The notes beneath the pieces were generated by a model, which did no database searches, was not told the DNA's origin, and worked only from the letters and a program-made list of their open reading frames with translations. DNA of 64,000 nucleotides from Candidatus Woesearchaeota archaeon. GTDB lineage: Archaea > Nanobdellota > Nanobdellia > Woesearchaeales > ARS49. The position numbers and the translations under genes were made by a program. Shown in pieces: positions 4,269 to 64,000 of this stretch. Numbering within the stretch: the stretch's first letter is position 1; every line of letters begins with the position of its first letter. Location: contig JAFCDQ010000003.1 in assembly GCA_017609645.1 (NCBI GenBank), positions 221,571 to 285,570 of the forward strand. Reading direction: 5' to 3'.

Positions 4269-4324
4269 TAACGCCCAAAAAACAGTCGACCGCAGGGAGA
4301 CATAACTAGCCACAGGCTAGGTGG

Positions 4325-4344: not shown

Positions 4345-4356
4345 AACCTTTTGAAA

Positions 4357-4560: not shown

Positions 4561-4616
4561 AAAATTTTCAAAAATAATCAGCAAAACTTAAAAACAACAA
4601 ATCTTCTTCTTGTATA

Positions 4617-41582: not shown

Positions 41583-42137
41583 ATGGGGTGGAAAGATACT
41601 TTTGACAAGTTGAAATTGCAGTTTATTAATACAAAGAGCGCTTTTCTTGAATTGAACAAAGAAAAAGGCATTACTAATGCGTTCATATTCTTGGTCATTC
41701 TTATCATTGCTTATAAAATCATCAGTTATGCCGCTGTTTATGTTTTATCAGCAGTTTTGAAGTTAAAGTCTTTTCAAGTGCCTGTGTATGATTTCACAGA
41801 TCATTTCATTTCTTTTATTTATATGATTGTAGGCAGTTTCTTGATTGTTTTGCTGCTTCATGCATTTATCAAATGGTTCAAAGGTAAAGCTAATCTCGCC
41901 AGTACTTATAAAATCTTTATTTACAGTATCTGGCCTTATCTGCTATTAAGACCTATTCCTATTGTTGGAAGGCTTGCAGAAGCTCTTTCATTGTTTTTTT
42001 ACATCGTAGGCGTTTGTTATATTCATAAATTAAAGCCTATTCCTGCTTTTTTCACTTTTTTCATTCCTTTAGCTTTAATTGGAGCGCTTATTTTTTATTT
42101 GTCACTCAAATCAATTTATTTGTTTGGAGGAGTCTAA
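41583..42137 (+). CDS. Yip1-like membrane protein
   Basis: About five TM segments; KGKANLASTYKIFIYS..P pattern. Confidence 0.65.
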   Translation: MGWKDTFDKLKLQFINTKSAFLELNKEKGITNAFIFLVILIIAYKIISYAAVYVLSAVLKLKSFQVPVYDFTDHFISFIYMIVGSFLIVLLLHAFIKWFKGKANLASTYKIFIYSIWPYLLLRPIPIVGRLAEALSLFFYIVGVCYIHKLKPIPAFFTFFIPLALIGALIFYLSLKSIYLFGGV

Positions 42138-42548: not shown

Positions 42549-42564
42549 ATTTCATTTTCTTCTT

Positions 42565-42680
42565 TTTTGCTGCCTTTTCATGAACTTACAACTTTTTTTT
42601 GCTTTCAGCAACAGGGGGTTGCCCCCTTCGGGGATGTTGCTATTCAATTAACTCTGCAATCAAGTGAATTGGCAGCAAAA
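42565..42680. ncRNA. Candidate structured RNA or REP/MITE-like element
   Basis: Outer inverted repeat TTTTGCTGCC/GGCAGCAAAA; inner AGCAACA/TGTTGCT enclosing GGGGGTTGCCCCCTTCGGGGA. Confidence 0.45.
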
Positions 42681-42736
42681 GAAAAAGTTTTTTTGACATC
42701 TTTTTTCCGTCGATTTCTTTATAAAGAAAAAAAACC

Positions 42737-42750
42737 AAAACATTTATAAA
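42737..42750 (+). promoter_or_regulatory. BRE/TATA promoter of the giant-protein operon
   Basis: AAAACA-TTTATAAA; G-rich RBS before ATG 42796. Confidence 0.6.
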
Positions 42751-42795
42751 TGATAATTAGTTTTATTCCTTAAGCATTTAAAAAAGGGGGATTAG

Positions 42796-45333
42796 ATGAA
42801 ATACACTAATTTAGTGATAATTTTAGTTGCGTTAGGTTTCTTATTTTCCTGTGTCAGCGCTCCAACAAGCCTTGTAAGTTATGATGAATATGAAGAAATT
42901 TTAAAGTATAATGAATCAATTTCTAATGAAGATTTTATTGAAGCAGATGAACCTTATGTTCCTTCTTTTGAAACAGAAGAAGCAAATGATCCTTTTAGAA
43001 CAGCCGCTACAGTTGCTGTTAATGATTGTTTTAAAGCTTCAGCAGTTGGAGCAGCAGGTGATGAATTTATTTTACAAAATAGTGTGATTTTTGCAGGAAC
43101 AGGTGATTGTGTTATTCTTGACTTACATGACATTATTTTTGATTGTGATGGATATACTATTCTTGGAAATCCAGGAGTGTCGGATGATGGAATTTATGTG
43201 AATAATAAGTTTAATGTTACTATTCAAAACTGCACTATTGAAGATTTTGCAAATACTAACGATACAGGCGGCGGTGTCTATGATTTTTCTTATGGAATTG
43301 TTGTTGGAAGAGCTGCGGGAAACGTAACTATTTTGAATACTGTTATTAGCGGCATTGATCCCCCTAATCCTCCAGGCATAACTGGAGCTGGCGGAGGAGG
43401 GGTCAGGTTTAATTCTCAATGGTCCTGTTTTCCTGCTTATTTGAATATAACAAATCTTACTGTTGTTACTAGTAACAATGGCGTTAGAATTGGTTCTCAA
43501 ACTCTTGCTTGTCCTGGTCCTGTTCCTGGTTTTATTCAAGGCCCTTTCTGGACTCGTGATAGTAATTTTTCTGGAAATACTTATTTTCAATATGTTGCTT
43601 ATAATACAGAAGGAAATCATATTATTGATAATACTGTTTTCCGTGCTGGAGAAGATAGGTCTGTTCAGATTACAGGTAATCGCAGTCTTTTTGCTACAAA
43701 TGGCCATATGATAGAAAATATTTCAATTACAAATTGCACTTTTTTTGAAGGTTTTAATCGTTCTGATATTTTTATTGAAAGAGCTTACAATGTTTCTATT
43801 GTGAATAATTCTATTTACAAGAATATTTTCATTACTAATGCCACAAATATCTCAATTGTCAACAATACTTTCACTGAGAATGATACTGCTAATAGAAGTT
43901 ATAACAGCATTTATGTTAATATTATTGAAAATCTTACAATTCTTAAAAATCTTAACGTGCCTGAAATGTTTGATTTAAATGATTTAACAAGGGCATTTAT
44001 CAGACATAATACTTTTACAAATAATGGTTTAATCAGAATTCAAGAATCTGTTGCAGGCACTAACGCTAATGTTGTTATTGAAAATAATAATTTTTCTGAT
44101 ATGAGTATTCAAGGCCAGACAGCAGGAGGCATATCTTATTCTGGAGGCAATGCCAATATCAGCTTTAATAATTTTCTTAGAGGTATTATGTATTCTATTG
44201 AAATTGTTGGTGCCGGAAATAGGATTGTAGGAAATCAAATTAATGATACAAGAGGCATTGTTTTCAAAGTTAAAGGAGATACTAATCAGTTCATTAATAA
44301 TTCTGTTTATAATCATACTGGCACTGTTTTTTGGATTAACGGAACAAGCAATATATTTTTCAGAAATGATTTGGTTTTTATATTGAAATATGTGAACACT
44401 TCTTTGAATTATGATGCAAAAGGTCCTTTTTCTCAAGTTCCTGAAGGCAGTATTGGTTTCTTGTTATTAAGAAATATTAATACCAATATAACCCGCAACA
44501 CAATAGGAATTCTCAATCCTTTGGCTTTGATTAATGGAGTTTTTGGCATTAAAACAGCCAATACTACTAAAGGAGTTTTAGCAAATCTCGCAGTATTAAC
44601 TCAAAATATTTTGATTGTCAATAATACTTTTGGCTTAGCAAGTGTTTCAGATTTTGGCCCTAAAACTGCCATTGATTTAACTAGTTCGTTTAATGGCATA
44701 ATTGAAAACAATACTGTGCGTAATTGTGAACATGAAGGTATTGTGATTAATGCAGGCCAGGATAATAATTTAACTACTAATAACATCACCCAACTTAACT
44801 GGAATCGTGTTCCGTATTATGCTGAAAATGCTGTTAAGATTTTCAGGTCATTCAATAACAGGTTAACGAATAACACAATAATTAATTATGACACTGGAAT
44901 TTTTTGTTATAATTCTACATTTGATACTTTTAAAAATAATGATATTAATTTCAGTTCAAGGCAGGGAATTTTCTCATTTCAATGTTTGAATACAACTTTA
45001 TCTTCTAATGTGATTTTTAATGCAACATCTGGAATTAAGCTGTTTTTCAGTAATTTAACTTCTTTGATTAGAAATACTGTTAATCAAACAAAAATTGGTT
45101 TTGATTTTAATTATGCATTCAATAATACTGCAAGTAATAACATTCAGGAAAATTCTACTATTGGTTTGAATCTTGACTTATTTAGCGGGAATAATACTTT
45201 CAATAATAATGATTTTACTAAAAATACTGATGTCGATGTGTTGTATGATATGTTTGCTAAGACTAACACAGGAGCAGGTAATAATTACGCAACAAGCAGG
45301 TCAGAGAATTATGCTTCAGGAAATTTAATATAA
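42796..45333 (+). CDS. Secreted or lipid-anchored long beta-helix (NosD/pectin-lyase-like) protein
   Basis: Signal ending LFSC; about 750 aa of Asn/Ile/Thr beta-helix repeats with many sequons; no C-terminal TM. Confidence 0.82.
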   Translation: MKYTNLVIILVALGFLFSCVSAPTSLVSYDEYEEILKYNESISNEDFIEADEPYVPSFETEEANDPFRTAATVAVNDCFKASAVGAAGDEFILQNSVIFAGTGDCVILDLHDIIFDCDGYTILGNPGVSDDGIYVNNKFNVTIQNCTIEDFANTNDTGGGVYDFSYGIVVGRAAGNVTILNTVISGIDPPNPPGITGAGGGGVRFNSQWSCFPAYLNITNLTVVTSNNGVRIGSQTLACPGPVPGFIQGPFWTRDSNFSGNTYFQYVAYNTEGNHIIDNTVFRAGEDRSVQITGNRSLFATNGHMIENISITNCTFFEGFNRSDIFIERAYNVSIVNNSIYKNIFITNATNISIVNNTFTENDTANRSYNSIYVNIIENLTILKNLNVPEMFDLNDLTRAFIRHNTFTNNGLIRIQESVAGTNANVVIENNNFSDMSIQGQTAGGISYSGGNANISFNNFLRGIMYSIEIVGAGNRIVGNQINDTRGIVFKVKGDTNQFINNSVYNHTGTVFWINGTSNIFFRNDLVFILKYVNTSLNYDAKGPFSQVPEGSIGFLLLRNINTNITRNTIGILNPLALINGVFGIKTANTTKGVLANLAVLTQNILIVNNTFGLASVSDFGPKTAIDLTSSFNGIIENNTVRNCEHEGIVINAGQDNNLTTNNITQLNWNRVPYYAENAVKIFRSFNNRLTNNTIINYDTGIFCYNSTFDTFKNNDINFSSRQGIFSFQCLNTTLSSNVIFNATSGIKLFFSNLTSLIRNTVNQTKIGFDFNYAFNNTASNNIQENSTIGLNLDLFSGNNTFNNNDFTKNTDVDVLYDMFAKTNTGAGNNYATSRSENYASGNLI

Positions 45334-48300
45334 ATGACAAAAATATTTAAAAAAGGGGGGTTATTGTTTTTCTTCTTATTACTCACAGCCATCTCTGTCT
45401 CTGCAATTACAGATACTGTGTTTAGTGATATTGATGGAGATGGTGATCTTGATATTTATTTAGAAACAGTAATTGAAAATAATGCAGGTGTTTTTTATAA
45501 TAGAACAAATGCTAGCGGCATTCCTTTGTTTAATGATTTAATTAAAGGCCATTTTGTTGATTTTAACGGAGATGGCAGGGAAGATTTGTATATTGTTCGT
45601 GACAACGCTGTTAATCAGCTTTATTTGAGAAATGCTTCTGTTAGTAATTGGAATTTTACAAATTATACTAATTCAGTTATTGGCCAAAGATTAAGAGGAA
45701 AAGCAGGAAGTCCTGTTGCTGCTGTTTTTGCTGACTTCACTAATGATGGTAATATTGATGCTTTTGTTAATGGAGAATTATGGCTTACAACTACTACTAA
45801 TTTTGATTTTAATGCCACAAACAGGTCTAATGTTGATGAAATGCCTAATTTAGTTTGGGTTAAAGCTAAAGATGTTAATTTAGATAATCTAACCGATATT
45901 ATTGGAACAACGGCAATTGGAAAAATGGTTGTTTATTTAAGCTTAGGAGATACAAATAATGATGAGGCTCCTGAATTTTATCCTGCAGAAGTTGATATAG
46001 GTTTGAGTTTTGAACAAAATATTTCATTTGTTGAAGTTGGAAATATTGAAACAGGTCTTGCTTATAACAGCAGTTTGAATTATTATCCGTTTGTGAACGA
46101 TACTCCTCCTTTTGTTCTTGATAAGTTCGAGGATTTTTATTTAGTTAAAGAAAATGAAACAAATGTTCTTTATACACAGCTTTGGCCTCAGCTTCCTGAA
46201 AAGTTTTCTACAATTAACACAAGTGATTTTTATCTTCCTCAATTATTTAATTTGCGACCAACTAGTGTTAATGATTCTAGGAATGGAAGTATGGCGATTA
46301 TGGCTGATTTTGACAATAACACTTTTGTGGATATCTTAGTTGCTAATCATGATAATGAAAGTTTGATTATGTTAAGAAATGGTTCTAGTTGGTCACAGGA
46401 ATTTGTTGATAGCCAAGCTAGATTCAACACAACTACAAATATCAAACTTATTGAAACTGTTGATTTGAATAATGATGGTGAACTTGATTTTGCAATTATT
46501 GATCCGCAAGAAATTAGTTTGCAACAACTTCCTGTTTCTGGTTCTAGTGATGTGAGTATTCCTGCTGGTGAACCCTGCACTCTTGATCCCTTGAATACTT
46601 TTGGTGATACAGAAGTAGAAGATTTTACTGAAATGGAAGAATTTGCTGAAGGAGCAGCAATTCCAAGTCTTACTTTTGAAGAAGAAACAGCACCTTTGAC
46701 TTCAGGTTATCCTGAGGTAAATATTAATTTTCCAACTCATGAAGAATTTTCAGCTAATCCTCCTGCTCTTGCAGAAATAGAAGGAGATTCTATTGGTTAT
46801 GTTACTGAGCAAGAAGATGGAACTTGTACTGAAACAATTGATGGTGGAGAATATGATGTTGACGCAGGAACTAAAGAATTAAACGATGGTGAAATTAATA
46901 AAGAACCTAGTCCGCCTCCTCCTGTTGTTGTTGGCCCTCCTACTATAGGAGGCCCTGGTGGTAGAATTAACGTTATTCAATTCAAAATAATTTGTTGTGA
47001 CCCTAAGACAGGAACTTTTGAAGAGTTTATGCTAACTCAAGAATTTAAAGAAGTTTTAGGAAGTGTTTTTACTGGCATCCAACCGCCTGCTGAAATGCCT
47101 TTGCCGCCTGGCGGAATTTTGCTTGAAGCACAGCAAAGTTTTGGTGATAATTGTGTCCAAGTTGGCGAGAATTATGTGTTGCAAGGACAAGGCGGTCCTA
47201 GTATTGAGAATTGGATGTCTGCTCAGCTTGCTTGTATGCCTAAGATAACTGAAAGAGAACCTCCTGAATTTTTTGATGAAATTCCTGGAGATTTTGAAGA
47301 TGAAGAAGTTCGTAAGCCCAAGCCAAGAATCACAAGAACTGGCTTAGAATGTATTTGCCCTCCTGAAATAACATATTGTGATGACGATATTTGCGGCGAT
47401 ATTAATTCTTTTTGTACTGGTGAACAAATTAGTGTTGGTCCTTGTGGGGGTTGTGGCGTCAAGCCGGCTGCTCAAGTTACAAAGATTTTGAGAGATATTA
47501 TTTTGCCTCAGCAAGCTACTTTTGATGCAGAGCATTTGAAATGGGAACCTCCTAGTGATAAGATTGGTCCTATTAAACCAAAAACAAAACCTCCTGTTCC
47601 AGAAGCTCCTACTAAGATGAGCACTACTCCTAAACCTCCTAATTTAATGATTGAAGAAGTTTTTGTTTGGAAAATTTCATATCCTGAAGAAGAACCTATC
47701 GCTGCGGTTGCTGCTGAGACTGCTTTAACTGCTGATTCCATTTCTGTTGAAATGAGTGAGTTAGCAGAAGATATTATTTCGCCAGAAGTAGCTGTTACAG
47801 AAGTTAGTGCTGTTAGTATTACTGGCGCCGCTATTTCTGATATTGTGCAAGAAGAAAGAACAATTGTAAATGAAGTTACTGATATTGAAATCAGTCCAAT
47901 TTTATTTGAAAAAGAAAACTTAGTTGTTGTTGATAATACTCCTCTTGATTTAAGGGTGTTTATGCCTAGTGAAGAAGATGAACTTAATGATTTGATTGAT
48001 CTTGTTACTGTTGATGAAGCGGATTTGTTAAGTGATAAAGATCTTGAACAAGTTAAGTCTGAATTAAGAAAATTAGGTATGGAATTATTGCATGAGCAAA
48101 ATGATTTGCATTCTGTTAGTTTGATTTGTTTAACAGAGTTAAAAACTAAACTTGATGATGTTTCTGAGAAAGAAGGTTTGATTCCTCCTGGTAAGGCAGA
48201 TGCTGCTATTAATGATATTTCTGATGTTCTTGTTAACAGCGCATCTAGTTTAGATATTGCTAATTCTAAAGATAAATTAACTGCAAGTATTGGTGTTGTT

Positions 48301-51300
48301 GAGAATTATGTTAATGAAGTCAAGCCATATAATGATCTGAAAGATACTTTGAACAGCTTTAAGGCAAAATCCGAACTTTCTGGGCAGTTTAATTATGATT
48401 CTTTTATGAAATTAAGTGAAATTAAAGAATTAACAAATGATTTGTATGATGAAGATTTGAATAATGATTTAGAAAAGTTAAATGATTTGATTTTTGCTAA
48501 CAAAGTTGATGATGCTAAAGGATCGTTGAAAAAGTTTGCTGAAAAGTATGAAGATGTTTTGTTAAATCATTACAGCAAAAAGATTGATAGTTCAATTGCT
48601 GACTTTAAAGATGCAGTTGCTTTTGCTGATTATGAACAGCTTATTTCAGCATCTAGTGCTATTAGTGATTTTGTTGATAAGAATCAAGGCAATAATAAGA
48701 TTGCTAGATTATTGCAGGGTATCGAAAGCGATATGTTGAACAAAAATGATATTAGCAATAAATTAGTTAGTTTAAGCGAGCTTATTTCTTCTGATGCTAC
48801 GGAGATTCCTGAACTTAATGACGGCTTGATGAGGTTAGGTGAAAAGCTAAATGATAATGATATTCAAGGCGTTCTTGATGAAGTTTCTGGAATGAAAAAG
48901 CAGGCCAAGAATTCTTGTTTTATTAGTGACGGCCAGCCAATTGTTTATGAGTATTTCACCCAGGATTTCGAGTTAGCAAATAAGCAGATTCAGGAAAAGA
49001 TGAAAAAAGCTAGTGAGACTGTTTCTGAGTTATATACAATTGTTGCCAAGCTAATGGGCCAGGTTGATGATGAAGATGAGGATTATGATTTATCAGATCT
49101 TAAGTTCGAGATGTATGACAAAATCAAAGAAAGCAGTTCATTCTTCTTTTTCAAGAATCAGTATTTTGAAGATTTGAAGTTATTGTTCAAGTTATCTCCT
49201 GTTTATTCTTATATGAAAGATTTGAGAACTGCTATTTTTTCAGTTTCTGAAGAACTTAATAGTTTAGATGTTGTTAAGCCAGAGCAGATTGATTATTATA
49301 ATGACCGGCTTGATAAGATCATGGCAGGCATTAATTCTTTGCGTGCTGTTTTGTTAAGCCAGTCTGGTAAAAATATTGATTTAGCTTTATCTCCTTATTT
49401 CACAGGAGCTATTGATGAAGGAACTCTTGATGTCAGAGTGTCTGACAGAGCTCATGCATTGACTGCTGAGATCATGGATAAAGTTGATAATGATGTTCCT
49501 GTTAGTGATGCAGCTCGTGCTGCAAATATTCTTGCTGAAACTTTTGAAAAAGAAATTCCTGAAGTTAAAGATTTAACAGAGCCTTCTTTTGAAAAGTATG
49601 AAGAAAAAGAGAAAATTGCTGAAGCTAAAGATTTGCTTGAGAAAGAGTTGAAACAAGATGAGTTTAGTAAAGAACAAGCAAAGATTGCTGATATTAAGAA
49701 AGAGATTTTTGCAAAGACAGAAGAGAGGAAGTTAGCTGATGAGTTAGCTGCTGTTTCTGATAAAATTACAGACGTTAGTGTTAAAGAAACGCTTGCTGAA
49801 GAAGTTGCTGAAGAAGAAAAGGCAGAGGAAGAAAAAGCTGAGCCAGAAGAAAAGAAGAAAAAGAAAGAAGAAGAGAAATTTAGTAAAGAAGAAAAGCTTG
49901 CTATGGAGAAATTCTATAACAAAGGTATGTATGCGTTTAAGAATGAAGATTATAAAGATGCGATTAAGAATTTTGGAGAGTATTTGCGGATTAATCCTTT
50001 GAATGCAGATGTGTTATGGCATACTGCTGATTCTTTGAAAAATGTTGAAGAGAATTATTTAAGCACAAAAACTGCTGAAGCTGTTGAGAAAGTTAAGGAT
50101 TGGAAAGAGTTTGTTCAAACTTTAGAAGAAATCGAAGGAACTCCTGAAGAAAAGGTTTCTAAGTTTGTTTCAGAAGTTCAGGAAAAGGTTGAAGCTCCTT
50201 CGTCTAGGTTTATTGAGCCTGCTGCTTATGTTTTGCTTGACATGACTGACTGCTTTACAGAACCTTTGCAGGAGTTTGTTGTTGAAGGTAAGATTTACAA
50301 TTTCTATGGTGTTAAAGAAGAAGTTGATGAACAAGGAGCAGTGAAATACTTTATTGAAGCTACTCCTAATGATAAAATTGAGACTGTTACATTCGAGATT
50401 CCTGAATTGATTAGTACTTTGAAAGAGCAGATTGGTTTTTGTAAAGTTGATGAAACAGAAGAAGAAAAGAAACCTCCTAAACCTACGCCGACAAATGATG
50501 ATTTTGCTCAGGCTTTGGCTAATGATCAAGCTAGGAAGTCTACTTCTCCAGATGGAGAAGAACAAGTTTGTATGGAAGTTGAATCTGATGTTTCTGCTTT
50601 GTCTAGTGTGATTGATGTTCAAAAAACTACAGCAGAAGTTTGCGCTCCTTATGATGATGTTGCTGCATTAAGTGACTTTAAAGAACCTGACAAAGAGATT
50701 AAACTATTTGAAGAGATGAAATTCCCAACTCTTGAGCCTGACTTTGAATTATTAAAACAAAGTAATGTTCGTGAGAATTTGTATGATATTTATAGAATAA
50801 CTCAGGTGCTAAATATTGTTGGTGATTATCAGCTTGATTCTGGCGAGAGTAAGTTGTTTGTTCTTGGTGATAATCTCTTTGAAACTGTGAAAGTTAGGAG
50901 AAAAGTTAGCAGAAAATTCCTTAATACCTTAGAAAAAATGGATTATACACCTCCTCCTAAATGTTCTTTCAAAGGAGGATCAGCAACTTGCACTCAATTT
51001 GATCAATGCGTTGTTATTAAAGGCAAATTAACTTGCTCTAAAAGTTTTTCAGAAAAAGATTGTACAGAAGTTGAAGGGAAATGGATTTGTGAAGGTTATA
51101 ATGAATGCAAAAAAGAAGGTGAAGAAATAATTTGTGAGCAAAGACTAAAAGAAGACTGCATTTTTGGCAGAGATGCGGAAGGTAATATTGTTGTCGAACA
51201 GTGCGAAGGTTTTGAAGAAGGTGAATGTAAGATTAATGATGAAAGTGAAATTGAATGTGAATCTTCAAGTGTAGAAATTCCTAGTGATTGTGAAAGAGTA

Positions 51301-52107
51301 GGATTAGGAGATGAAGAATACAACTTAATATGCGCTGGTTTTGCAGGTGCTTCTTGCAAAATGCTTGATTCTGGACAAGTTTACTGCAAAGAAAGCGGAA
51401 AACTTCCTGAAGGTTGTGCTGTAATAAAAAGTAAATTTGTTTGCGAAGATCCTGTTTTGCAGGAAACATTAAAAGATTGTGTTATTGAAGAAAAAACAGG
51501 TGAATTTTCTTGTGGTGAAGGAGATCTTGAATGGTTTTTTGATAATAGCACATTAAAGAGCAGACCTAAGCCTAAATTTTCTGAAAGACCTGGAGAAGAT
51601 TGTGTTTATGTTGATGATAAATTTATTTGCGGTGAAGGTCTTCCTGAAATGAGAAATATTCCTCATGGTTGTGTTTTAGTGAATGATGAGCTTGATTGTT
51701 ATTATGATCCTAAGATTCAAGAAGGCTGTGCGTATAAAGATGGCGTTTTGGAATGTGAAGGTTATGAAAGAGGCGCTTGTGGCTTTAAAACTGATGAAGA
51801 AGGCGATGAGCAATTTAGTTGTGTAAAAGTTGATGTTGTTGAATTTGAAGAAGGCTGCACTATTAGTGGTTGTGAAGGTTATTCTGCTAGTGAATGTGGC
51901 TTTAGTAATGGTGAATATGTTTGTGAAAGTGCTGAAAAGCAGAATTTTCCAGAAGGTTGTGATTTTGATTCAGATAATGGCAAGATATTATGTGGCTCTG
52001 CTGAGCTTGATTTGCCTGAAGATTGCGTTGCAACTAGTGAAGGAATCAAATGCAACAGTAAGAATTGTTATTACAAATTAGGAAAGTTAGTTTGCGAAAA
52101 TGGCTAA
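45334..52107 (+). CDS. Giant secreted protein (2257 aa): FG-GAP repeats, Pro/Cys-rich region, acidic helical stalk, TPR motif, C-terminal Cys-hairpin repeats
   Basis: Signal peptide; DIDGDGDLDIY, DFNGDGREDLY, DFTNDGNIDAF, DFDNNTFVDIL, DLNNDGELDFA; FYNKGMYAFKNEDYKDAIKNFGEYLRINP; repeated (E/D)GCxxxxxxxxC. Confidence 0.85.
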   Translation: MTKIFKKGGLLFFFLLLTAISVSAITDTVFSDIDGDGDLDIYLETVIENNAGVFYNRTNASGIPLFNDLIKGHFVDFNGDGREDLYIVRDNAVNQLYLRNASVSNWNFTNYTNSVIGQRLRGKAGSPVAAVFADFTNDGNIDAFVNGELWLTTTTNFDFNATNRSNVDEMPNLVWVKAKDVNLDNLTDIIGTTAIGKMVVYLSLGDTNNDEAPEFYPAEVDIGLSFEQNISFVEVGNIETGLAYNSSLNYYPFVNDTPPFVLDKFEDFYLVKENETNVLYTQLWPQLPEKFSTINTSDFYLPQLFNLRPTSVNDSRNGSMAIMADFDNNTFVDILVANHDNESLIMLRNGSSWSQEFVDSQARFNTTTNIKLIETVDLNNDGELDFAIIDPQEISLQQLPVSGSSDVSIPAGEPCTLDPLNTFGDTEVEDFTEMEEFAEGAAIPSLTFEEETAPLTSGYPEVNINFPTHEEFSANPPALAEIEGDSIGYVTEQEDGTCTETIDGGEYDVDAGTKELNDGEINKEPSPPPPVVVGPPTIGGPGGRINVIQFKIICCDPKTGTFEEFMLTQEFKEVLGSVFTGIQPPAEMPLPPGGILLEAQQSFGDNCVQVGENYVLQGQGGPSIENWMSAQLACMPKITEREPPEFFDEIPGDFEDEEVRKPKPRITRTGLECICPPEITYCDDDICGDINSFCTGEQISVGPCGGCGVKPAAQVTKILRDIILPQQATFDAEHLKWEPPSDKIGPIKPKTKPPVPEAPTKMSTTPKPPNLMIEEVFVWKISYPEEEPIAAVAAETALTADSISVEMSELAEDIISPEVAVTEVSAVSITGAAISDIVQEERTIVNEVTDIEISPILFEKENLVVVDNTPLDLRVFMPSEEDELNDLIDLVTVDEADLLSDKDLEQVKSELRKLGMELLHEQNDLHSVSLICLTELKTKLDDVSEKEGLIPPGKADAAINDISDVLVNSASSLDIANSKDKLTASIGVVENYVNEVKPYNDLKDTLNSFKAKSELSGQFNYDSFMKLSEIKELTNDLYDEDLNNDLEKLNDLIFANKVDDAKGSLKKFAEKYEDVLLNHYSKKIDSSIADFKDAVAFADYEQLISASSAISDFVDKNQGNNKIARLLQGIESDMLNKNDISNKLVSLSELISSDATEIPELNDGLMRLGEKLNDNDIQGVLDEVSGMKKQAKNSCFISDGQPIVYEYFTQDFELANKQIQEKMKKASETVSELYTIVAKLMGQVDDEDEDYDLSDLKFEMYDKIKESSSFFFFKNQYFEDLKLLFKLSPVYSYMKDLRTAIFSVSEELNSLDVVKPEQIDYYNDRLDKIMAGINSLRAVLLSQSGKNIDLALSPYFTGAIDEGTLDVRVSDRAHALTAEIMDKVDNDVPVSDAARAANILAETFEKEIPEVKDLTEPSFEKYEEKEKIAEAKDLLEKELKQDEFSKEQAKIADIKKEIFAKTEERKLADELAAVSDKITDVSVKETLAEEVAEEEKAEEEKAEPEEKKKKKEEEKFSKEEKLAMEKFYNKGMYAFKNEDYKDAIKNFGEYLRINPLNADVLWHTADSLKNVEENYLSTKTAEAVEKVKDWKEFVQTLEEIEGTPEEKVSKFVSEVQEKVEAPSSRFIEPAAYVLLDMTDCFTEPLQEFVVEGKIYNFYGVKEEVDEQGAVKYFIEATPNDKIETVTFEIPELISTLKEQIGFCKVDETEEEKKPPKPTPTNDDFAQALANDQARKSTSPDGEEQVCMEVESDVSALSSVIDVQKTTAEVCAPYDDVAALSDFKEPDKEIKLFEEMKFPTLEPDFELLKQSNVRENLYDIYRITQVLNIVGDYQLDSGESKLFVLGDNLFETVKVRRKVSRKFLNTLEKMDYTPPPKCSFKGGSATCTQFDQCVVIKGKLTCSKSFSEKDCTEVEGKWICEGYNECKKEGEEIICEQRLKEDCIFGRDAEGNIVVEQCEGFEEGECKINDESEIECESSSVEIPSDCERVGLGDEEYNLICAGFAGASCKMLDSGQVYCKESGKLPEGCAVIKSKFVCEDPVLQETLKDCVIEEKTGEFSCGEGDLEWFFDNSTLKSRPKPKFSERPGEDCVYVDDKFICGEGLPEMRNIPHGCVLVNDELDCYYDPKIQEGCAYKDGVLECEGYERGACGFKTDEEGDEQFSCVKVDVVEFEEGCTISGCEGYSASECGFSNGEYVCESAEKQNFPEGCDFDSDNGKILCGSAELDLPEDCVATSEGIKCNSKNCYYKLGKLVCENG

Positions 52108-55100: not shown

Positions 55101-58100
55101 GTCAAGCAGATTACGATCATCAAAAGCGAGCTCAGTTTATTCATGATTTGCTTAGACCTGCTTTTTGTGCTATGCAAGGAGAAATTCAGAGATCTGCTCA
55201 GGCTCAATCTAATCTTGCGAATAATCCTACAGTTAGAGAAAGTATTCAAAATGCTCTAGATACCGCTGAAGATAAAAATGGAGATAACAAAATAGACCTA
55301 AAAGATATTGATATTGATCAAGTTATTGGAAATATTGAAGATGCTTTAGGTGAAGGACTAGATACTGAAGGTTTGTTAAATCTTGAAACATTAAGAGAGA
55401 ATAAACAGCTTAATAATTTAATTGCCAGAATGCTACAAGCTGCTATAGATAAAGAGTTAGATAAATTTGCTGAAGAAGCAAATAATAATGCTCAAGCTGC
55501 TGCTGCTAAGCAAAAAGAGATTTGTGAAGATAAAGGAGGAGGTCCTGTCGGACAGTATATGGGAACTTTTGGTTTCTTAGGTTCTGCTGGCGCTATTGTT
55601 GCAAAAATAGGTATTGGCGAGGAATTGTATTCTCCTGCAAATGTTTTCTATTCTCTTGCTAGTTTAAGATTATCTGCTCAATCTATTCAGACTTTAACTG
55701 AGGAATATAAAGAACATAAAGCGAATTTAGAAAATAAGGAAAGATATGTCAGGATTAATGGTCTTGCATTATTGCATAATGTTGGTTATGGTCCTGCGCT
55801 TTTGCCTCCGGAATGTGGAGGTAAAGCTAGTGTAAGTACTGGAATGCCTGCTAGTAATGAAGATGAAGAAACTGAAGAAGGAGAAGAGGAAGAAGAGACT
55901 GAAGAAGGTGAAGAAGAAATTGGTTTTGTTAGAGAAGGTCTTGGTTGGGGTGAAGGAACTGCAACTACAGGAGGAACTCTTGACTTAGAAAAACCAACAC
56001 CTAGTGGACCGCTTGGTAAAACTAGAGCGGCTACTAGAGAAATGTGTAAAGATCCTGCTGAAAAATTAATTGATAATATTCTTGAGAACTTTAAAGCACA
56101 ACAAAAAAGTGTTGATAAAACTATTGAATCTTATAAAAATCAGATTAGTTCTGAGATTAAAAGACAAGGTCTAGCGTTATCTTTTGCTGTTAATAATTTA
56201 GGAAAAATTAAGTCTAAGATTGATAAAGTTATTCAAGACTTAAATGGTAAAATTAGTGCTGCAAAATCTTTCGCTGCTTTTATGGGTTGTGAAGCTTCTT
56301 CAATGCCTGCAGAAGGAGAAGGTGAAGGAGAGGGTATTGGATTGCCGTCTCTGGGTATGCAAGAAGAAGTTATGGTCTTGCCTGGTGTTGGACTTTCTGG
56401 TGTTTCAGGTACTGGTTTTGTTTCTGGTATTAATGCAATCACAGGAGCTATTCCAATTGACCCTGGTGCTGCAGGTATTGATGTTATGGCCGCTCCTGCT
56501 GCGCCAAATGGAGCTGGTGCTCCTGAACCTGCAGGCGGTGGCGCAGCTGCAGGTATTTCAGGTCAATTAGCTGTTTTTGAAAAATTAAGTAATCAAGAGC
56601 ATGGTCTTGCTGTGTTTGATTATGATATTACTTTAAATAAAAAAGAACCAGTTGCTAAGTTAGGTAAAAATTATAAGATGGGTACGTTTCTTTGTGGAAA
56701 TGCAGTAAGTGCTCTGGGCGCTGCTGAAGCTGCAAAGAATGCGTTGGCAAGTTATAAAGCTGCGTTAGGTAGTTTGTTCCGTGAATTACAGTCGCATAGT
56801 ATGTTTGAGCAAGAGTTGTCTCTTAGAACTTTTGAAAGTTTAGGTTTAGATCATTTAGATTCTGCTATGGCTGCTTTGAATAAGTTTGCTTCTAAATTTT
56901 ATGGCGCTGCTAATAAAGCAGTCGGTGGTTTTTACAGTTTAGGTCAATTTTGGGCTTATGCTAGTGAATTTGAAATGAGTTATTCTGTTCAACATCATAA
57001 TAATTTCCATGCTGACTTTAGTGTTGCTCCACCTCCAGAATGTGTTTGGGTAGAAACAGGAGGTCCTTTTACTCCTTTGCCAACTTCAACTGGTGAAGTA
57101 ATGGTTATTGGTCGATCTCATCAAACAGTTCCTGCTGGTACAGGTGCTGTTATTGCAGATGTTTCTGGAAAACAAGTATTTACTCCTAGTCCTGCTAGAG
57201 CATTGCGTTTTACTGAAGAAACAATAATTACTGTTCCAGGTACACTAGACTGTCCTATGTGTGAACAAGCTAGAAAAGATGCAGAAGCTGTTCAAAATGC
57301 AAAGAAGCTATTGAGTGTGGCTGCTGCAGAGGGTTATTCTGTTGCTTCAATTATTCAAATGATTCTTTCTGGTAAGATGAAAGGCGACAGTGCGCTTGAA
57401 GGTTTAAATCTTGGTCCTTTGAAATATGATTCTGATTATAATAAATTAAGTGCTAAAGATAAACAAGCAGTTCTTGATGAATTAAGAGATTTATTTAGTT
57501 TTTGTGATGGTTCTGCTGAAGAGCCTGACTTTTGTGACGGTGTTAGGGATATGATTGATTACTTTGAAGGATTGTTAAAAATAAATAATATTAATGAAAA
57601 GTTAACAGAGGATTTGAAGAATGCTGGTGAGGAAAAGAGAAAGCTTGGTGAGAAGTTAGAAGAATTAAAAGAAAAGATTGATGCTAAGCAGGATTATTTG
57701 AAAGAACTGCAGGATAAACTTAAGAAAGTTAAAGAAAAAATTATTGATAATGTTGACCAGCTTGGTGGTCAAGCAGAAGTTCAGAAGTTTAAGAAAGATG
57801 TTGAAAAGTTTGCTGCTGAATTTGAGCAATGTAAGTCTCAAACTAGGACTCCTTCTGAGTGTGTTAAAGAATTAAAAGTTAAGATTAATAGTAAAGCGTT
57901 TGATAATTGTAATAAAGAAGATTCTGAATGTAATAAGATGCTTGAGGATTTGAAGTCTGATCTTGAGCAGATGAAAGATCTCAGTGGAATGATTGATTCT
58001 GAGAATAAAGATTTGAAAGAATTGAATTCTGAATATTCTGAGGTTAATGTTGAGTTTAATGTTGCTAATGTTAAAGAAGGTGATTTGTCAAAGAGTGCTT

Positions 58101-61100
58101 ATGATAGAGCAAAAGAAAGTATGTTAGAGCTTAAAGAAACATTGCCTAAAGTTTTAACAGCTTATGCTGACAAGAGTATTAAAGATTATGGTAAATGGGC
58201 TACTGCTTGGAATGAAGTTAAAGATAAAAGAAAAGTTGGTTTAAAAGCTAGTGTTGTTCAATTGCTTGGAGCTGCTAGCGGCAGTAAAGAAGATATTGAA
58301 GATGCTATGAAGAGGTTAAAGACTATCGACGGTATTGATGAAATTATGAAATCTGATGATTTAAAGAAATTAACTAATGCTATGGAAAATCCTTCTGGAG
58401 ATAATTTAAAAGACTTTATTGATGCTTTAAAAGATACTAAAAAAGCTGTTGATGGCGAGTTAAAAGACTTACAAAAGCAGGCTAATGATTTGCGTGCCAG
58501 GGTGATTGCGCAGAAAGCTATGGAAATTGTGGGCGGCTTACTTCCTGGTTTCGGAATTGAAAAAGCAGATCCTGTTTTAGGATTTAAATTAGGAGAGTTT
58601 GATAATGCTGTTACTCAATTAAAAAACACTAGAACTGCTTTGTTTGGCGCTATTCCTAATATTTTAAGCCAGATTGATGAAGAAGATGAAAGAAAAGATG
58701 TTCTTGAAAAATTTAAAGGATTAAGAGATGAATTTAAAGATTTGAAAAATGAAAGAGATTCTGTTTCAAAAGAAATGGATGAAATTAAAAACGAAATGAA
58801 TCAGATTGCTGATACTGAAAGTCCTATGTATAAAGAATTAGAAGCAAAGTTTAAGAGTTTAGATGTAAAATTTAAAGAATTAGATACTGCCTGGAAAGGT
58901 ATTGATGGAGCTTATAAAAATGCAGTAATTGCTGACGCTACAACTACTTTAATGCAAAAGATGCAGACAGCAGAAGCTGATGATCCTCTTTATGTTTATG
59001 TAATTATTAAGGACTATATTACCCGTCTTGATCCTGAATTAGATGCTGATCAGATTAAACAAGTATTACAGCCATTAATTGATATATTAAATAAAAAGAA
59101 TTATTTAGATCAGACAGATGATAAAAGTTATGAAGATTCTATTAAAAAATTCTTTGATGAAGAGACAAGTTGGCTTAAAGATATTGATCCTGAGCTAAGA
59201 GATAAAATTATGTCTGTTGCTGGTGAATTAGGTGAACAGGCTCTTGCTGACAGAAAGTTTGCTTCTGCTTCAGTTTTAATTGCTCAGATTGAAATGTTTG
59301 ATCCTAAGAATGTTGATGGTTTGAATAATTTCATGAACGAAATTAAAAATGCTATGGCACAGGGCTTCTCTTTTTATGATACGCCTGAGTTAATGAATTT
59401 GATTTATAATGGTCTTGCTGTTTCTTATGATGTTTTTTGGGATTTGCAAGGAAAAGAAGTAGACTCTAGCGTAATTTATAATAGGATAAGTGAGTTCCAC
59501 TTAGGCCAAAAATTCTTAGAAAAGGTTGCAGGAATTTCTGGTCAGTTATTATTTTTAAACTCGAACATGAGGCATGATGGTATAATCCCTACTTTAGAAG
59601 AAGCAAAAGAAAAAGGAATGGCAGATCTTGAGAAGATTGGAATTATTTATATGGATGCTGCTGGTCTAAAGAAAGAACTTGCTGCGCTTAAAAAATTAAT
59701 GAGTGAGATGGATCCTATTACTCGTGCTATGAAAATGGCTTTGTTATACACTAAACAAGGTGAATTATTAAGATTGTGTGATAATGCTTTAAAGGTCACG
59801 ACAACTCAAGCAGAGTTTGATGAAGTTGATAAAGTTATTTCTTCTATCTTAGTTGGTTTAGATAAGTCTGATCCTTTTATTAAAAATGAAGTTGATAAAA
59901 TATTAGACACTAGAAGAAAAAAATTTGCAGATTCTATCAAAAAGCCGTCTGAATTAACTAATGTCCAGAATGATTTGACTAATAAAATTGAATTATTAGG
60001 AAATGAAATGTTTAAAACTAAAATAGAAATAAAACTTGAGAAGAAAAAGCTTAAAGGTTTAGGTTTAGATTCAGCTTCCGAAGAAGCTATGAGTTTAAGA
60101 GAAAAAATAACTGCTTTAGAAGATACTTATGAAATGCTTTCTGATGATTTAAATTTCTGGAAAGAACAATCAGTTAAAGTAAACAAGGACTTGGATAATT
60201 ATAAAAAGGACCTTCAAGACGAAAAAGAATTTGATTCTCAAGCTAAGAATGAAGTTAAAGTTGCTAGTATTTCTCAAAAAAGAAGCGAGATTAATAACAT
60301 AGAAGAGCACGAGTCGTATAAAAAAGCTCGTCGCGAGGGTATAGGAAACATTAAAGAATTAGATAAAGATGGCCAAAAAGATCTCACAAGTTTGACTGGT
60401 AAATTATTGCTTGATTTAGAAGCACTTAATCATGATATTGATGCTGCGTTTAAAGGAACTGCTAAAGGGTCAAAAGAGTCAGCGATTGCTAGTTCTTTTG
60501 ATTTAAGTGACAAACTTGGTAAGAGAACTGCTATTATGAATAAATTGACTGAGATTTATAGTAAGATTAAGCCAGATCATGCGTTAGGAATGTCAAAAGA
60601 AAGTCAAAAATACCTCGATAACTTGCATAAATTCCAGCAGCTTGCTTCTTTGCTTGATAAGATTGATCCTGATAGAGTTGCTGAGCATAATTATGTTACA
60701 GGCGGCATAAGTGATGATCGTAAATTAGAACAATATGCTAAAGCTGCTTTTGATGAACTTAAACAAAATAATGATTTCTCAAGTATTTATCTTGCTATAG
60801 CTACTGAAGGAGATCCTGTTAAGGCTTGGGCTGAAATACTGAACAAAGATCTTCGTAAGATGCTAGATCTTAACGAAAGAAGCGAAGCTTGGAGTGGTTG
60901 GGGTTCAACGGAAAATAGATTAAGAGGCTTGCAAGAGCAAACTAAAGATCATACTTTTTTACTTCAAGCTCTTGCTCAAAGCGGTCTTGCACAAGACTAT
61001 CCTTTTTTCAAACTCGTTCTTGAGAATTCAGAAAAAATCAATATGATGTTTGAAGTTCTTTATAAAGATTCTATAGCAGATAATTTTGCTTTAGATGAAA

Positions 61101-64000: not shown

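Follow-up and report, generated by a model that had tools for sequence, protein, structure and literature searches.

The archaeal DNA considered here, a stretch of 64,000 nucleotides referred to as the window, ends in three adjacent genes that encode very large proteins with signal-peptide-like N-termini. An earlier note had proposed that the three products form one host-contact machine. This raises the question of whether all three belong to a single structure at the cell surface, or whether the largest, the product of gene 3, has a different fate.

The operon and its first two genes

The window covers positions 221571-285570 of C2, a contig of 316 kb without Ns, in a genome of 1.125 Mb in 4 contigs. 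The three open reading frames are co-directional on the plus strand, and the third remains open at the window end (Table 1). Genes 1 and 2 abut at 45331-45336, where TAA is followed directly by ATG, and genes 2 and 3 overlap by 8 nt at 52100-52107 (ATGGCTAA). Coordinates and junction letters are exactly as the earlier note had given them, and the translational coupling of the three genes is real. Gene 3, said there to encode at least 3967 aa, was followed into the contig; its stop lies at window-equivalent 69358 (C2:290928), which gives a full length of 5,752 aa. The size of at least 21 kb proposed for the operon stands as a lower bound, the full unit being 26.6 kb. The gene downstream of gene 3 is convergent and has no family match.

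Table 1. Features of the three-gene locus, with positions counted in the window
Feature	Position	Strand	Description
Upstream intergenic region	42549..42795	+	Two TATA-like boxes and an SD-like site, read from the sequence; candidate sole promoter
Gene 1	42796..45333	+	845 aa; predicted signal peptide, lipobox-like LFSC (Cys19), right-handed beta-helix
Gene 2	45334..52107	+	2,257 aa; begins directly past the gene 1 stop; ends ...KLVCENG
Gene 2 Cys-rich repeat region	50962..52095	+	aa 1877-2254; 38 Cys, spacing ~9 residues
Gene 3, in-window part	52100..64000	+	aa 1-3967 of 5,752; predicted signal peptide aa 1-26 (VSA, then QD)
Gly/Ala-rich block of gene 3	61337..62209	+	aa 3080-3370; helical, weakly hydrophobic, net basic (+17)
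Start of conserved SF2 ATPase module	63839..64000	+	Gene 3 aa 3914-4829; module runs on to window-equivalent 66586

The spacer before gene 1 is AT-rich and 247 nt long. Two TATA-like boxes (TTTATAAA) occupy 42718-42725 and 42743-42750, and a Shine-Dalgarno-like AGGGGGA stands directly before the gene 1 ATG, at 42785-42791. Together with the convergent gene downstream, these elements make a single candidate promoter for the three genes plausible. A hairpin at ~42608-42640 was considered as a regulatory element and set aside, its stability being no better than that of shuffles (z = -0.94).

At the N-terminus, each of the three proteins combines a basic n-region with a strongly hydrophobic h-region (Kyte-Doolittle 2.1-2.4) and a small-residue cleavage motif, which is the lipobox-like LFSC in gene 1, VSA followed by I in gene 2 and VSA followed by Q in gene 3. 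Judged by hydrophobicity and cleavage motif only, the signal peptides that the earlier note had assigned to each giant are found in 3/3. No hydrophobic C-terminal segment is present in any of the 3, full-length gene 3 included, and the absence of a C-terminal anchor noted before is thus borne out. These features suggest that the proteins are exported. Tat export of gene 3 was also weighed and discarded: the N-terminus has KR and no twin-arginine motif, and AglB would still have access to Tat substrates.

A DPANN-type source, as had been proposed, agrees with the archaeal markers (aEF-2, aEF-1alpha, L7Ae and uS10 of archaeal/eukaryotic type), with the small genome (1.1 Mb, 32% G+C), and with the named genomes that carry relatives of gene 3, which are Ca. 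Woesearchaeota only. It is hardly credible that the locus is an assembly chimera or a pseudogene that is not expressed. The assembly is of metagenome type, and in tetranucleotide usage the operon correlates with the genome at 0.953, under the 5th percentile for random chunks (0.970), but other giant genes of the genome correlate similarly or lower (0.86-0.97). The locus lies inside the contig, 7-25 kb from the genes for EF-2, EF-1alpha and gyrB, and the gene 3 frame is open over 17,259 nt; an open frame of 17 kb at 32% G+C cannot have arisen by chance. In addition, the strong register-specific selection on sequons described below points to a gene that is translated and functional. Comparison of tetranucleotide and codon usage was dropped as an assembly check; it is not discriminating, as a different Woesearchaeote locus correlates almost equally.

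Gene 1 matches Pfam Beta_helix (PF13229) at E 4.7e-19 in four stretches (69 bits vs a cut-off of 25.9) and NosD at E 7.7e-9 (35.7 bits vs 23.6), and the beta-helix recognized earlier is therefore above cut-off in both families. The protein is rich in N-X-S/T sequons (43 vs 19.8 expected). It is probably a glycosylated, lipid-anchored surface protein. In relatives, gene 1 has only weak beta-helix matches.

Gene 2 begins with the signal peptide and an FG-GAP head (aa ~27-420), continues with a Pro/Cys-rich linker and a long acidic helical region, and ends in the Cys-rich repeats, which match no family. FG-GAP had been claimed for this protein and is upheld by FG-GAP_3 (PF13517; E 2.4e-18; 66.9 bits vs a cut-off of 26.9; two stretches, the best at aa 76-145). 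TPR had been claimed also and is not upheld: TPR_1, TPR_2 and TPR_16 reach 15.8-16.1 bits against cut-offs of 27-33, with a single repeat at aa 1527-1567. Sequons number 19 in aa 1-500, where 6.9 are expected, and 1 in aa 501-2257, where 7.8 are expected. A word-indexed homolog search with aa 501-2257 among 5.8 billion proteins returned only the query itself.

Searches with Pfam, NCBIfam, PHROGs and PADLOC on the three proteins gave sub-threshold matches only, apart from Beta_helix/NosD and FG-GAP. The three have no BLASTP-level paralogs within the genome, whose remaining giants are not related to them. As orphans, genes 1 and 2 are linked to gene 3 by the coupling alone.

Sequons and cysteines in the gene 3 protein

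Gene 3 has no N-X-S/T sequon (X not P) in 5,752 aa, where 30.6 are expected and where none of 2,000 shuffles had fewer than 15. Adjacent registers are normal, with 32 N-[ST] (31.7 expected) and 35 N-x-x-[ST] (31.6 expected). Correction by other polar X-x-[ST] pairs lowers the expectation to 28 (P ~7e-13). Each half of the protein is sequon-free, with 0 vs 15.6 in the N-terminal half and 0 vs 15.0 in the C-terminal half.

Across the genome, the ratio of observed to expected sequons is 0.98 for proteins without a hydrophobic N-terminus and 1.42 for signal-peptide-like proteins. Long cytoplasmic proteins, including SMC, have a pooled ratio of 0.84, and SMC alone has 4 sequons vs 6.7 expected. Compositional or helical bias as the cause of the depletion is ruled out by the register and cytoplasmic coiled-coil controls. 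The two most depleted proteins genome-wide are gene 3 and a giant of 5,099 aa located 4.3 kb downstream (0 vs 21.4), and six other giants of the genome have about a twofold enrichment (e.g. 290 vs 132.8). It should be pointed out that the sequon-free neighbour has three strong C-terminal TM helices, and therefore a lack of sequons does not by itself imply release.

The genome encodes STT3/AglB. By the combination of export, sequons and AglB in the genome, gene 1 and the gene 2 head are of the AglB-substrate type and gene 3 is not. The gene 3 protein presumably carries no glycans. The three genes fall in opposite glycosylation classes, gene 1 being sequon-rich, gene 2 mixed and gene 3 sequon-free. 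This argues for different fates of the three proteins rather than parts of one surface fibre.

The same depletion is found in relatives of the ATPase module of gene 3 (see below). In putative archaeal-type members the observed and expected counts are 0/23.8 (L027), 1/20.2 (P0006), 0/17.4 (L017) and 0/9.1 (L039), and putative archaeal-type family members combined have 1 sequon vs ~101 expected. In contrast, a bacterial homolog, which has MreB, MurB and RuvC genes as neighbours, is not depleted (47 vs 40.8). The contrast between putative archaeal and bacterial members within one protein family is a natural, built-in control, and it makes the glycosylation-avoidance argument testable.

Cysteines are distributed unevenly. 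The N-terminal half of gene 3 is acidic and has 24 Cys, and the last 3,002 residues (aa 2751-5752) have 1 Cys vs 34.7 expected (P ~3e-14). The change from the Cys-bearing to the Cys-free part falls upstream of the Gly/Ala-rich block. The sole Cys of aa 2751-5752 is the final residue of the protein, and a C-terminal Cys recurs in relatives; genes 2 and 3 both carry one.

The ATPase module and its relatives

No Pfam family was found in the in-window part of gene 3, and aa 1833-2235 give weak SMC-type coiled-coil matches only. The description of the protein as simply a huge coiled coil does not hold, as the C-terminal half contains a conserved SF2 ATPase and probably a HopA1-family domain.

The ATPase module, with boundaries at ~3914-4829 set by phmmer, has Walker A LAGGKTTT at aa 4070 and DEIH at ~aa 4185. 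No other region of the operon has homologs, neither genes 1 and 2 nor the N-terminal half of gene 3. An exhaustive HMMER search found 9 relatives, and a word-indexed search with aa 3950-4750 recovered only the query. The relatives are rare (~10), and most are giants from Woesearchaeota or from bacteria with small genomes. A genome collection could be scanned with a 4-sequence alignment, and the module occurs in 2/401 genomes of the phylum as well as in bacteria. Motifs I, II, III, V and VI (GGKT, DE, MTGT, GTxGTN and Q..GR..R..G) are kept across relatives of 25-33% identity, from which it follows that the ATPase is under selection and requires ATP.

What kind of ATPase this might be is suggested by structural modelling. 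For the module, AF2 gives a structure of only moderate quality (pLDDT 61, pTM 0.53; TM-scores 0.3-0.45). In Foldseek against the PDB the top 20 matches are SecA/SecA2 (E 8e-8 to 6e-5, at TM-scores of 0.3-0.39), followed by RIG-I/MDA5 and Hef. In a viral library the top matches are DUF3638 giants of giant viruses (E 5e-9, TMq 0.41-0.45, ~870 aligned columns). Within the limits of a model of pLDDT 61, the module has the fold-level features of SecA: two RecA-like domains, SF2 motifs, an insertion between motifs II and III and a helical scaffold. The insertion is 230 aa (161 in real SecA), the motif spacings are 114/230/190 vs 126/161/168 in true SecA, and a 46-residue helix directly follows the second RecA-like domain.

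Sequence comparisons do not reach these families. PF07517 (SecA_DEAD) has no match at E<=1 when the whole genome is searched in six frames, whereas the true SecA of the bacterial genome G418 was recovered at 2e-112, and Pfam scans of gene 3 show no SecA family. With hhalign the 8-sequence module alignment scores a probability of 0.07 against the G418 SecA, a single-sequence template of low sensitivity. DUF3638/DUF3645 profiles have no match at E<=10 in any of the 8 members, and PDB sequence searches with the module, its profile and the gene 3 C-terminal 922 aa returned nothing. At sequence level only DEAD (E 0.0066) and ResIII (E 0.075) give a signal, both within the first of the two RecA-like domains.

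These two signals, and the place of RIG-I/MDA5 and Hef next after SecA in the ranking, would fit a nucleic-acid helicase of the RIG-I/Hef/ResIII type, in which case the giants would be polyvalent proteins that a virus or mobile element delivers along with DNA or RNA. The patchy spread, 2/401 genomes of the phylum and bacteria, also suggests horizontal mobility. This explanation is improbable. SecA/SecA2 occupy PDB ranks 1-20 and motif III (MTGT) is SecA-like, PHROGs and PADLOC give no match, no integrase, capsid or conjugation gene adjoins the locus, and the handling of DNA does not account for the signal peptide or for sequon avoidance.

Nearer the C-terminus, aa 5325-5422 match HopA1 (PF17914) at E 0.015 but fall short of the cut-off, with 15.6 bits where 22.7 are required. 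An overlapping stretch, aa 5329-5502, can be aligned with P0010 over its HopA1 region (BLASTP E 1e-4). On this basis the C-terminal half probably carries a HopA1-family domain. P0010 itself has HopA1 (Pfam E 1.6e-16) and APH, and P0006 has a signal peptide, then 3,184 aa without a hydrophobic segment, and contains the ATPase module, PP2C and a kinase. PP2C, kinase, APH and HopA1 in the relatives may represent effector-type cargo.

The earlier note had looked to conservation of the three-gene order in other DPANN. The order is not conserved anywhere: no orthologs of the three genes are found in 40 relatives, two congeners included, and genes 1, 2 and the gene 3 N-terminal half have no homolog at any module-bearing locus. 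What does recur, in G041, L039 and G194, is a signal-peptide giant that overlaps the ATPase-bearing giant (in G194 the module match is at the Walker-A region only). These overlapping giants are all sequon-poor. G041 has five of them, with observed/expected sequons of 0/15.8, 3/41.7, 1/20.2, 0/7.5 and 2/30.6.

Can all three proteins then form one extracellular host-contact fibre, with the ATPase-like module a relic and sequons lost because glycans would disturb coiled-coil packing? Three tightly coupled signal-peptide proteins, a beta-helix combined with an adhesion-type FG-GAP domain, the largely helical gene 3 with its weak SMC-like matches, and C-terminal Cys of genes 2 and 3 that could make an inter-subunit disulfide would all suit such a fibre. 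It is nevertheless quite unlikely, as Walker A, DE, motifs III and V and the motif VI arginines are invariant or nearly so at 25-33% identity, which is unexpected in a relic, and PP2C, kinase, APH and HopA1 in relatives have no obvious extracellular role. Moreover, the cytoplasmic coiled-coil SMC is not sequon-free (4 vs 6.7), the genome's other surface giants are sequon-enriched, and the three-gene order is unconserved. Of the single host-contact machine, the coupling and the recurrence of giant pairs remain in favour; the unconserved order, the opposite sequon classes and the ATPase in gene 3 speak against it.

A candidate translocated effector and systems it resembles

The best reading is that gene 3 encodes a modular giant effector and not a surface fibre. 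To the full proposal, that the protein is exported by Sec, is free of glycans and disulfides, and has an enzymatic C-terminal half that is translocated into a host cell, we give slightly less than an even chance. Gene 3 would be exported N-terminus first via the archaeal Sec pathway and kept free of N-glycans, with its C-terminal 3,000 residues also free of disulfides. This state would let the C-terminal half, in the order Gly-rich amphipathic block, SF2 ATPase of SecA/DUF3638-like fold and probable HopA1-family domain, cross a second membrane into the host cell, where alone, in the cytoplasm, ATP would be available for the ATPase. The co-translated partners, a glycosylated beta-helix lipoprotein (gene 1) and a disulfide-rich stalk that bears a glycosylated FG-GAP head (gene 2), most likely remain outside and would provide attachment. 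What the sequence shows are the coupled ORFs, the signal-peptide-like N-termini, the lack of TM-grade segments, the sequon and Cys statistics with their controls, the ATPase motifs and the fold matches; export, freedom from glycans, entry into a host and a joint role of the three proteins are inferences.

The Gly/Ala-rich block is a candidate membrane-inserting region. It has 14% G and 13% A, with GxxxG at 1.4 per 100 aa vs 0.4 elsewhere. Its maximum 19-residue Kyte-Doolittle value is 1.33, and past the signal peptide no 19-residue window of gene 3 exceeds 1.5 (maximum 1.47). The bacterial homolog has a block at the equivalent relative position with values up to 1.93, which is TM-grade. A single-sequence AF2 model of aa 3030-3450 is unusable (pLDDT 38.9).

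A rival explanation is that the block spans the producer membrane, leaving a ~3,050-aa N-terminal ectodomain outside and the ATPase half in the producer cytoplasm, where the ATPase would drive some other substrate out of the cell, either through the giant or along it. Nanohaloarchaeal giants share this layout of signal peptide, ectodomain, TM domain and cytoplasmic ATPase (PMC10266531). Producer cytoplasm supplies the ATP that the ATPase requires, and TM-grade helices are seen ahead of the module in the corresponding block of the bacterial homolog. In gene 3 this block carries a net basic charge, as for a cytoplasmic flank, and 24/24 N-terminal-half Cys precede it. Such anchoring is unlikely, although it accounts for several features. 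It leaves unexplained why the C-terminal half has 0 sequons vs 15.0, because nothing would favour the loss of sequons from a cytoplasmic domain, and cytoplasmic proteins are neutral (0.98; long ones 0.84). The single Cys of the C-terminal half also speaks against it, as do windows of at most 1.33 in the block, where several candidate helices bear Asp, Glu or Lys. In P0006, the module lies behind a cleavable-type signal peptide without any hydrophobic segment.

Two observations concern topology in general. The N-terminal half of gene 3, which is outside on the effector model, is sequon-free as well, and an extra assumption is needed; possibly the whole chain is threaded, or glycans would block assembly. 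In the bacterial homolog, with its TM-grade block, the ATPase is probably in the producer's cytoplasm, and the archaeal proteins might share this topology.

Little is understood about how DPANN archaea attach to their hosts or how they feed on and manipulate them, and we know of no demonstrated effector delivery system in archaea. The locus is a concrete effector candidate, a predicted secreted protein of 5,752 aa with a conserved ATPase and effector-type domains. The combination of a signal peptide, no sequons and few Cys parts candidate ‘delivered’ from ‘worn’ giants in the source genome; the same contrast is found once more, in G194, and the combination can be applied to other AglB-encoding archaeal genomes.

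Perhaps, as a long shot, DPANN hold an unrecognized class of translocated giant effectors, marked by a Sec signal peptide, total sequon avoidance and near-total Cys avoidance, in which a SecA-like cargo motor works inside the host. A SecA/DUF3638-like ATPase is unexpected in archaea, which to our knowledge do not possess SecA. If the class exists, the motor could dock on the host Sec channel, because archaeal hosts have SecYE-beta without SecA, and it could either draw the remaining giant inwards or move polypeptides of the host outwards, to the parasite. The conserved C-terminal Cys could then be a covalent tether to the partner giant or to lipid.

Several known systems bear comparison. The SPEARE giants of Nanohaloarchaeota, of 5,000-9,400 aa (Hamm et al., 2019; re-examined in La Cono et al., 2023, PMC10266531), have a Sec signal peptide, an ectodomain of ~75 Ig-like domains and beta-propellers, and a TM domain; their ATPase is described as VirB4/TraG-like and a second VirB4 gene lies downstream (PMC10266531). 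Shared with gene 3 are the DPANN source, the size, the N-terminal Sec signal peptide, a huge outer N-terminal part with an ATPase far downstream, the lineage-specific presence and absence, and a proposed role in subjugating the host. However, compared by description, gene 3 is not of the SPEARE type: its N-terminal half matches no family (no Ig, no WD40), its block is below TM grade where SPEARE has a clear TM domain, its ATPase is SF2 (SecA/DUF3638-like) and not VirB4, and the downstream gene is convergent. We know of no report of sequon or Cys avoidance in the SPEARE proteins.

The likeness to SecA/SecA2 lies in the order of motifs I, II, III (MTGT), V and VI, the large II-III insertion and the helix after domain 2. 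The module differs in having no sequence-level membership (SecA_DEAD none, hhalign 0.07; TM-scores 0.3-0.39), and it lies behind a signal peptide in a predicted secreted archaeal giant, whereas SecA is soluble and cytoplasmic. The DUF3638 giants of klosneuvirus-type giant viruses, which go under the name ‘ubiquitinyl hydrolase 1’, are the best structural matches of the viral library, and there too the domain lies within a very large protein. The similarity is at fold level only, with no Pfam DUF3638/DUF3645 signal in the 8 family members, and the matched structures are predicted, uncharacterized and from a different domain of life. We know of no signal peptide in these giants.

With the bacterial MARTX-type and polymorphic toxins gene 3 shares the plan of one secreted giant with variable effector-type domains (kinase, PP2C, HopA1-family and APH in relatives), modular cargo that is swapped between relatives, and a putative membrane-inserting region before the cargo. 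RTX-type repeats, an autoprocessing protease domain and type I secretion genes were not found, export would be by Sec, and the organism is archaeal; the likeness is one of logic, not homology. Lastly, genome type, signal peptides, giant size and coupling recall the sequon-rich surface giants of DPANN. Gene 1 and the gene 2 head belong with these, and gene 3 represents the opposite extreme (0 vs 30.6).

Three coupled genes and their setting

The three reading frames described in an earlier note on this DNA are found where it placed them (Table), and in each the N-terminus, judged by hand, resembles a Sec signal peptide; gene 1 also carries a lipobox-like LFSC there. Gene 1 ends with TAA immediately 5′ of the gene 2 ATG, and genes 2 and 3 overlap by 8 nt with the common sequence ATGGCTAA. 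Extension of the contig places the gene 3 stop at window-equivalent 69358, and the next gene downstream is convergent. With its three genes the unit is thus 26.6 kb long, so that the coupling behind the proposed operon of at least 21 kb is real and its full extent greater. A C-terminal anchor is absent from all three proteins, full-length gene 3 included.

The 247-nt AT-rich spacer 5′ of gene 1 contains two TTTATAAA boxes, and an AGGGGGA site lies immediately 5′ of the ATG. The intergenic region also has a G+C-rich double hairpin (GCAACAGGGGGTTGC / CCCCTTCGGGG); the folding energy of its surrounding 111 nt is ordinary (z = -0.94). Directly upstream of the operon are a Yip1-domain membrane protein (Pfam E 5.6e-8) and then a 136-aa orphan. 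The window corresponds to C2:221571-285570 in a genome of four contigs totalling 1.125 Mb (~32% G+C), of which ~184 kb is occupied by ORFs of at least 900 aa. The source organism is archaeal, as seen from the aEF-2, aEF-1alpha, L7Ae and archaeal-type uS10 genes 7-15 kb upstream.

The beta-helix proposed for gene 1 is borne out and is right-handed (Pfam Beta_helix E 4.7e-19). In gene 2 the FG-GAP head holds (E 2.4e-18), but the TPR matches fall below threshold; its C-terminus (aa 1877-2254) has 38 Cys at ~9-residue spacing. Gene 3 has no Pfam family match. Its description as a coiled-coil protein finds weak SMC-like matches alone, but leaves out a conserved SF2 ATPase at aa ~3914-4829, here termed the module. 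The note also proposed checking whether the three-gene order is conserved: 40 relatives, made up of 2 congeners, 22 members of the same family and 16 of the same order, contain no ortholog of any of the genes, and gene 1 gives short beta-helix matches alone there. Paralogs within the genome are absent, and gene 2 beyond the FG-GAP head has zero matches among 5.8 billion proteins.

Locations, lengths and sequon counts of the features (sequon, N-X(not P)-S/T)
Feature	Location	Length (aa)	Sequons, observed / expected
Yip1-domain protein	window 41583-42137
Double hairpin	window 42608-42640
Gene 1	window 42796-45333	845	43 / 19.8
Gene 2	window 45334-52107	2,257
Gene 2, aa 1-500			19 / 6.9
Gene 2, aa 501-2257			1 / 7.8
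Gene 2, C-terminal Cys codon	window 52093-52095
Gene 3	window 52100 to window-equivalent 69358	5,752	0 / 30.6
Gene 3, aa 1-3000			0 / 15.6
Gene 3, aa 3001-5752			0 / 15.0
Gene 3, last codon (Cys)	window-equivalent 69353-69355
Ser/Thr kinase	L002:1345-2481 (+)
Sir2-family protein	L002:2484-3317 (-)
Second sequon-free giant	L002:4451-19750 (G000 C2:295250-310549)	5,099	0 / 21.4
Relative, L027		at least 4,937	0 / 23.8
Relative P0006, genome G041		3,184	1 / 20.2
Relative, L017		at least 4,244	0 / 17.4
Relative, L039		at least 1,492	0 / 9.1
Bacterial homolog	L041:4547-22126; also L029, L022	5,859	47 / 40.8
Five giants, NC_groundwater_1849	JACRKG010000054.1, 22025 to ~78000 (L019, L020, L015, L021)	1,362, 5,214, 3,184, 1,267, ~6,862
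Giant (length and count) with its upstream 831-aa partner, genome G194	G194:C43:5281-31633 (L032/L033)	7,978	0 / 37.1

The ATPase module and its relatives

Searched exhaustively with HMMER, gene 3 aa 3960-5159 yields nine relatives, several of which are giants of 1,726 to 7,844 aa. When all ORFs of the retrieved loci are compared by phmmer, the module is the sole region in common, and the sequence outside it is unique to each protein. Among named genomes, the module is carried by two MAGs of Ca. Woesearchaeota and by one labelled "bacterium"; within the phylum of the window, 2/401 genomes have the module. The bacterial locus is set amid MreB, MurB and RuvC genes, in a 0.7 Mb genome with its own canonical SecA.

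The module alignment contains the complete SF2 motif set, F.LAGGKT[ST]T, DE[IVA][HQ], MTGT, GGTxGTN and Q..GR..R..G. An AF2 model from an 8-sequence alignment is of moderate quality (pLDDT 61, pTM 0.53). With this model Foldseek ranks SecA or SecA2 at positions 1-20 against the PDB (E 8e-8 to 6e-5); RIG-I/MDA5 and Hef come next. TM-scores are low at 0.3-0.39. In a library of viral structures, the model comes closest to the DUF3638 giants ("ubiquitinyl hydrolase 1") from klosneuvirus-type viruses (E 5e-9, TMq 0.41-0.45). At the sequence level there are sub-threshold DEAD and ResIII matches alone. A Pfam SecA_DEAD search has zero matches, and an hhalign comparison with a true SecA is negative. 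The motif spacing of the module, 114/230/190, resembles that of a real SecA (126/161/168), down to a long insert that separates motifs II and III. As the modelled fold is SecA/DUF3638-like yet no SecA match is found in the sequence, the module is named an SF2 ATPase and not a SecA family member.

Giants recur in other genomes. Ca. Woesearchaeota NC_groundwater_1849 has five co-directional, mostly overlapping signal-peptide giants, all near sequon-free. Cysteine is very abundant in the first two, at 80 and 124 residues, alongside a Kazal-like match, and the last has an FHA domain. The upstream neighbour of the G194 giant is an 831-aa signal-peptide protein, with which it shares an 80-nt overlap. 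The giant contains a single strong TM helix at ~aa 6321 and seven Cys pairs of CxxC type; its module match is limited to the Walker-A region. The bacterial homolog, complete on an 845-kb metagenome contig, has an N-terminus (…YSFGLIQIPVIVGL…) resembling the signal of a type IV pilin or pseudopilin; behind it come a Cys-rich region, a Gly/Ala block of TM grade and the module. It is possibly a giant, pilin-like protein from a CPR-like bacterium with a small genome.

Depletion of sequons and cysteine

Gene 3 is devoid of the sequon of AglB N-glycosylation over its whole length, and the depletion is register-specific: N-[ST] occurs 32 times (31.7 expected) and N-x-x-[ST] 35 times (31.6 expected). 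Correction by other polar X-x-[ST] pairs still leaves an expectation of 28 (P ~7e-13). The genome has an STT3/AglB gene. Genome-wide, signal-peptide-like proteins are sequon-enriched (observed/expected 1.42) and those without a hydrophobic N-terminus neutral (0.98); long cytoplasmic proteins, SMC included, have a pooled ratio of 0.84. Giants of this genome form two classes, six approximately twofold enriched (e.g. a 7,662-aa protein, 290 vs 132.8 expected) and two wholly sequon-free (among these giants are C1:261965-284953, C1:446222-461673, C1:562790-570502 and C4:168240-174611). The sequon-free pair are the most depleted proteins in the whole genome: gene 3 and a secreted giant 4.3 kb downstream, outside the window.

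This second giant ends in three strong TM helices (aa 5022-5093). It also contains two kinase-like regions that score below threshold, a MopE metal-binding motif, a Cys-rich stretch and a match to lipase-type alpha/beta-hydrolases. Between the two lie a Hanks-type Ser/Thr kinase (Pfam E 1e-37), a Sir2-family protein and two orphan genes. Together with genes 1-3 it may constitute a 46-kb host-interaction island.

Summed over gene 3 and the relatives at L027, P0006, L017 and L039, there is 1 sequon where ~101 are expected; several of the metagenomic relatives have no taxonomic label. Coupled partner giants are depleted as well, in G041 (0/15.8, 3/41.7, 0/7.5 and 2/30.6), L039 (2/17.6) and G194, where an ordinary surface protein adjoining the sequon-free giant has 28 vs 11.6 expected. 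The bacterial homolog, L040 (32 vs 34.3 expected) and L026 are undepleted. No account of such avoidance was found in the literature searched.

Cysteine is also distributed unevenly. Gene 3 has 24 Cys in aa 1-2750 and 1 in aa 2751-5752, where 34.7 are expected (P ~3e-14), and that one is the final residue. Cys is also found among the last four residues of gene 2, of P0006, of P0008/L039, which has no other Cys, of P0010, with 3 Cys in its 4,221 aa, and of two G041 partner giants; the background is 15/219 signal-peptide-like ORFs. Endings at the gene 3, gene 2, L015, L017, L020 and L039 gene ends are ...LAEC, ...VCENG, ...DVCS, ...KACA, ...DICD, ...EACVG and ...EICK. The terminal Cys is conserved in otherwise Cys-poor giants and could serve in a disulfide, thioester or lipid link. 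In P0006 and the G041 1,267-aa protein, the predicted mature N-terminus also has Cys at +1.

Topology and possible delivery

Past the signal peptide, no 19-residue window of gene 3 exceeds Kyte-Doolittle 1.5. A Gly/Ala-rich, net basic and GxxxG-enriched block (aa 3080-3370) reaches at most 1.33; AF2 yields no usable model of it. P0006 has a signal peptide and thereafter zero hydrophobic segments across 3,184 aa that include the module, PP2C and kinase domains. Past its module, P0010 has HopA1 (E 1.6e-16), APH and DUF5715 domains. Gene 3 aa 5329-5502 aligns with the HopA1 region (E 1e-4), and its own HopA1 Pfam match over these residues is weak (E 0.015).

Because gene 3 combines a signal peptide, no stop-transfer segment and sequon avoidance over the ATPase, we infer from its sequence that the module leaves the cytoplasm of the producer and encounters the oligosaccharyltransferase. 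A conserved ATPase requires ATP. Delivery into another cell is the simplest way to reconcile an exported ATPase with this need, and we tentatively give it nearly an even chance. Another cell would receive the gene 3 product, avoidance of glycans and disulfides would keep the chain translocation-competent, and genes 1-3 would act as attachment partners plus one delivered giant.

The earlier note saw one host-contact machine made of a beta-helix tether, an FG-GAP/TPR adhesin-scaffold and a huge coiled-coil protein. That the three genes cooperate is probable, given the recurrence of a coupled signal-peptide partner at G041, L039 and G194, but on the delivery reading they would not be three adhesins. 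That the giants form a single fibre is quite improbable, and retains some weight because of the tight gene coupling and the C-terminal Cys common to genes 2 and 3.

The main rival to delivery, though unlikely, is an anchored topology in which the motor stays in the cytoplasm of the producer. It leaves unexplained the sequon-free, Cys-free C-half of gene 3, as well as P0006, but is consistent with the bacterial homolog, which has TM-grade helices in the block equivalent to gene 3 aa 3080-3370. The model for such a topology is provided by the SPEARE proteins, giant surface proteins of Nanohaloarchaeota with a proposed role in host subjugation (PMC10266531).
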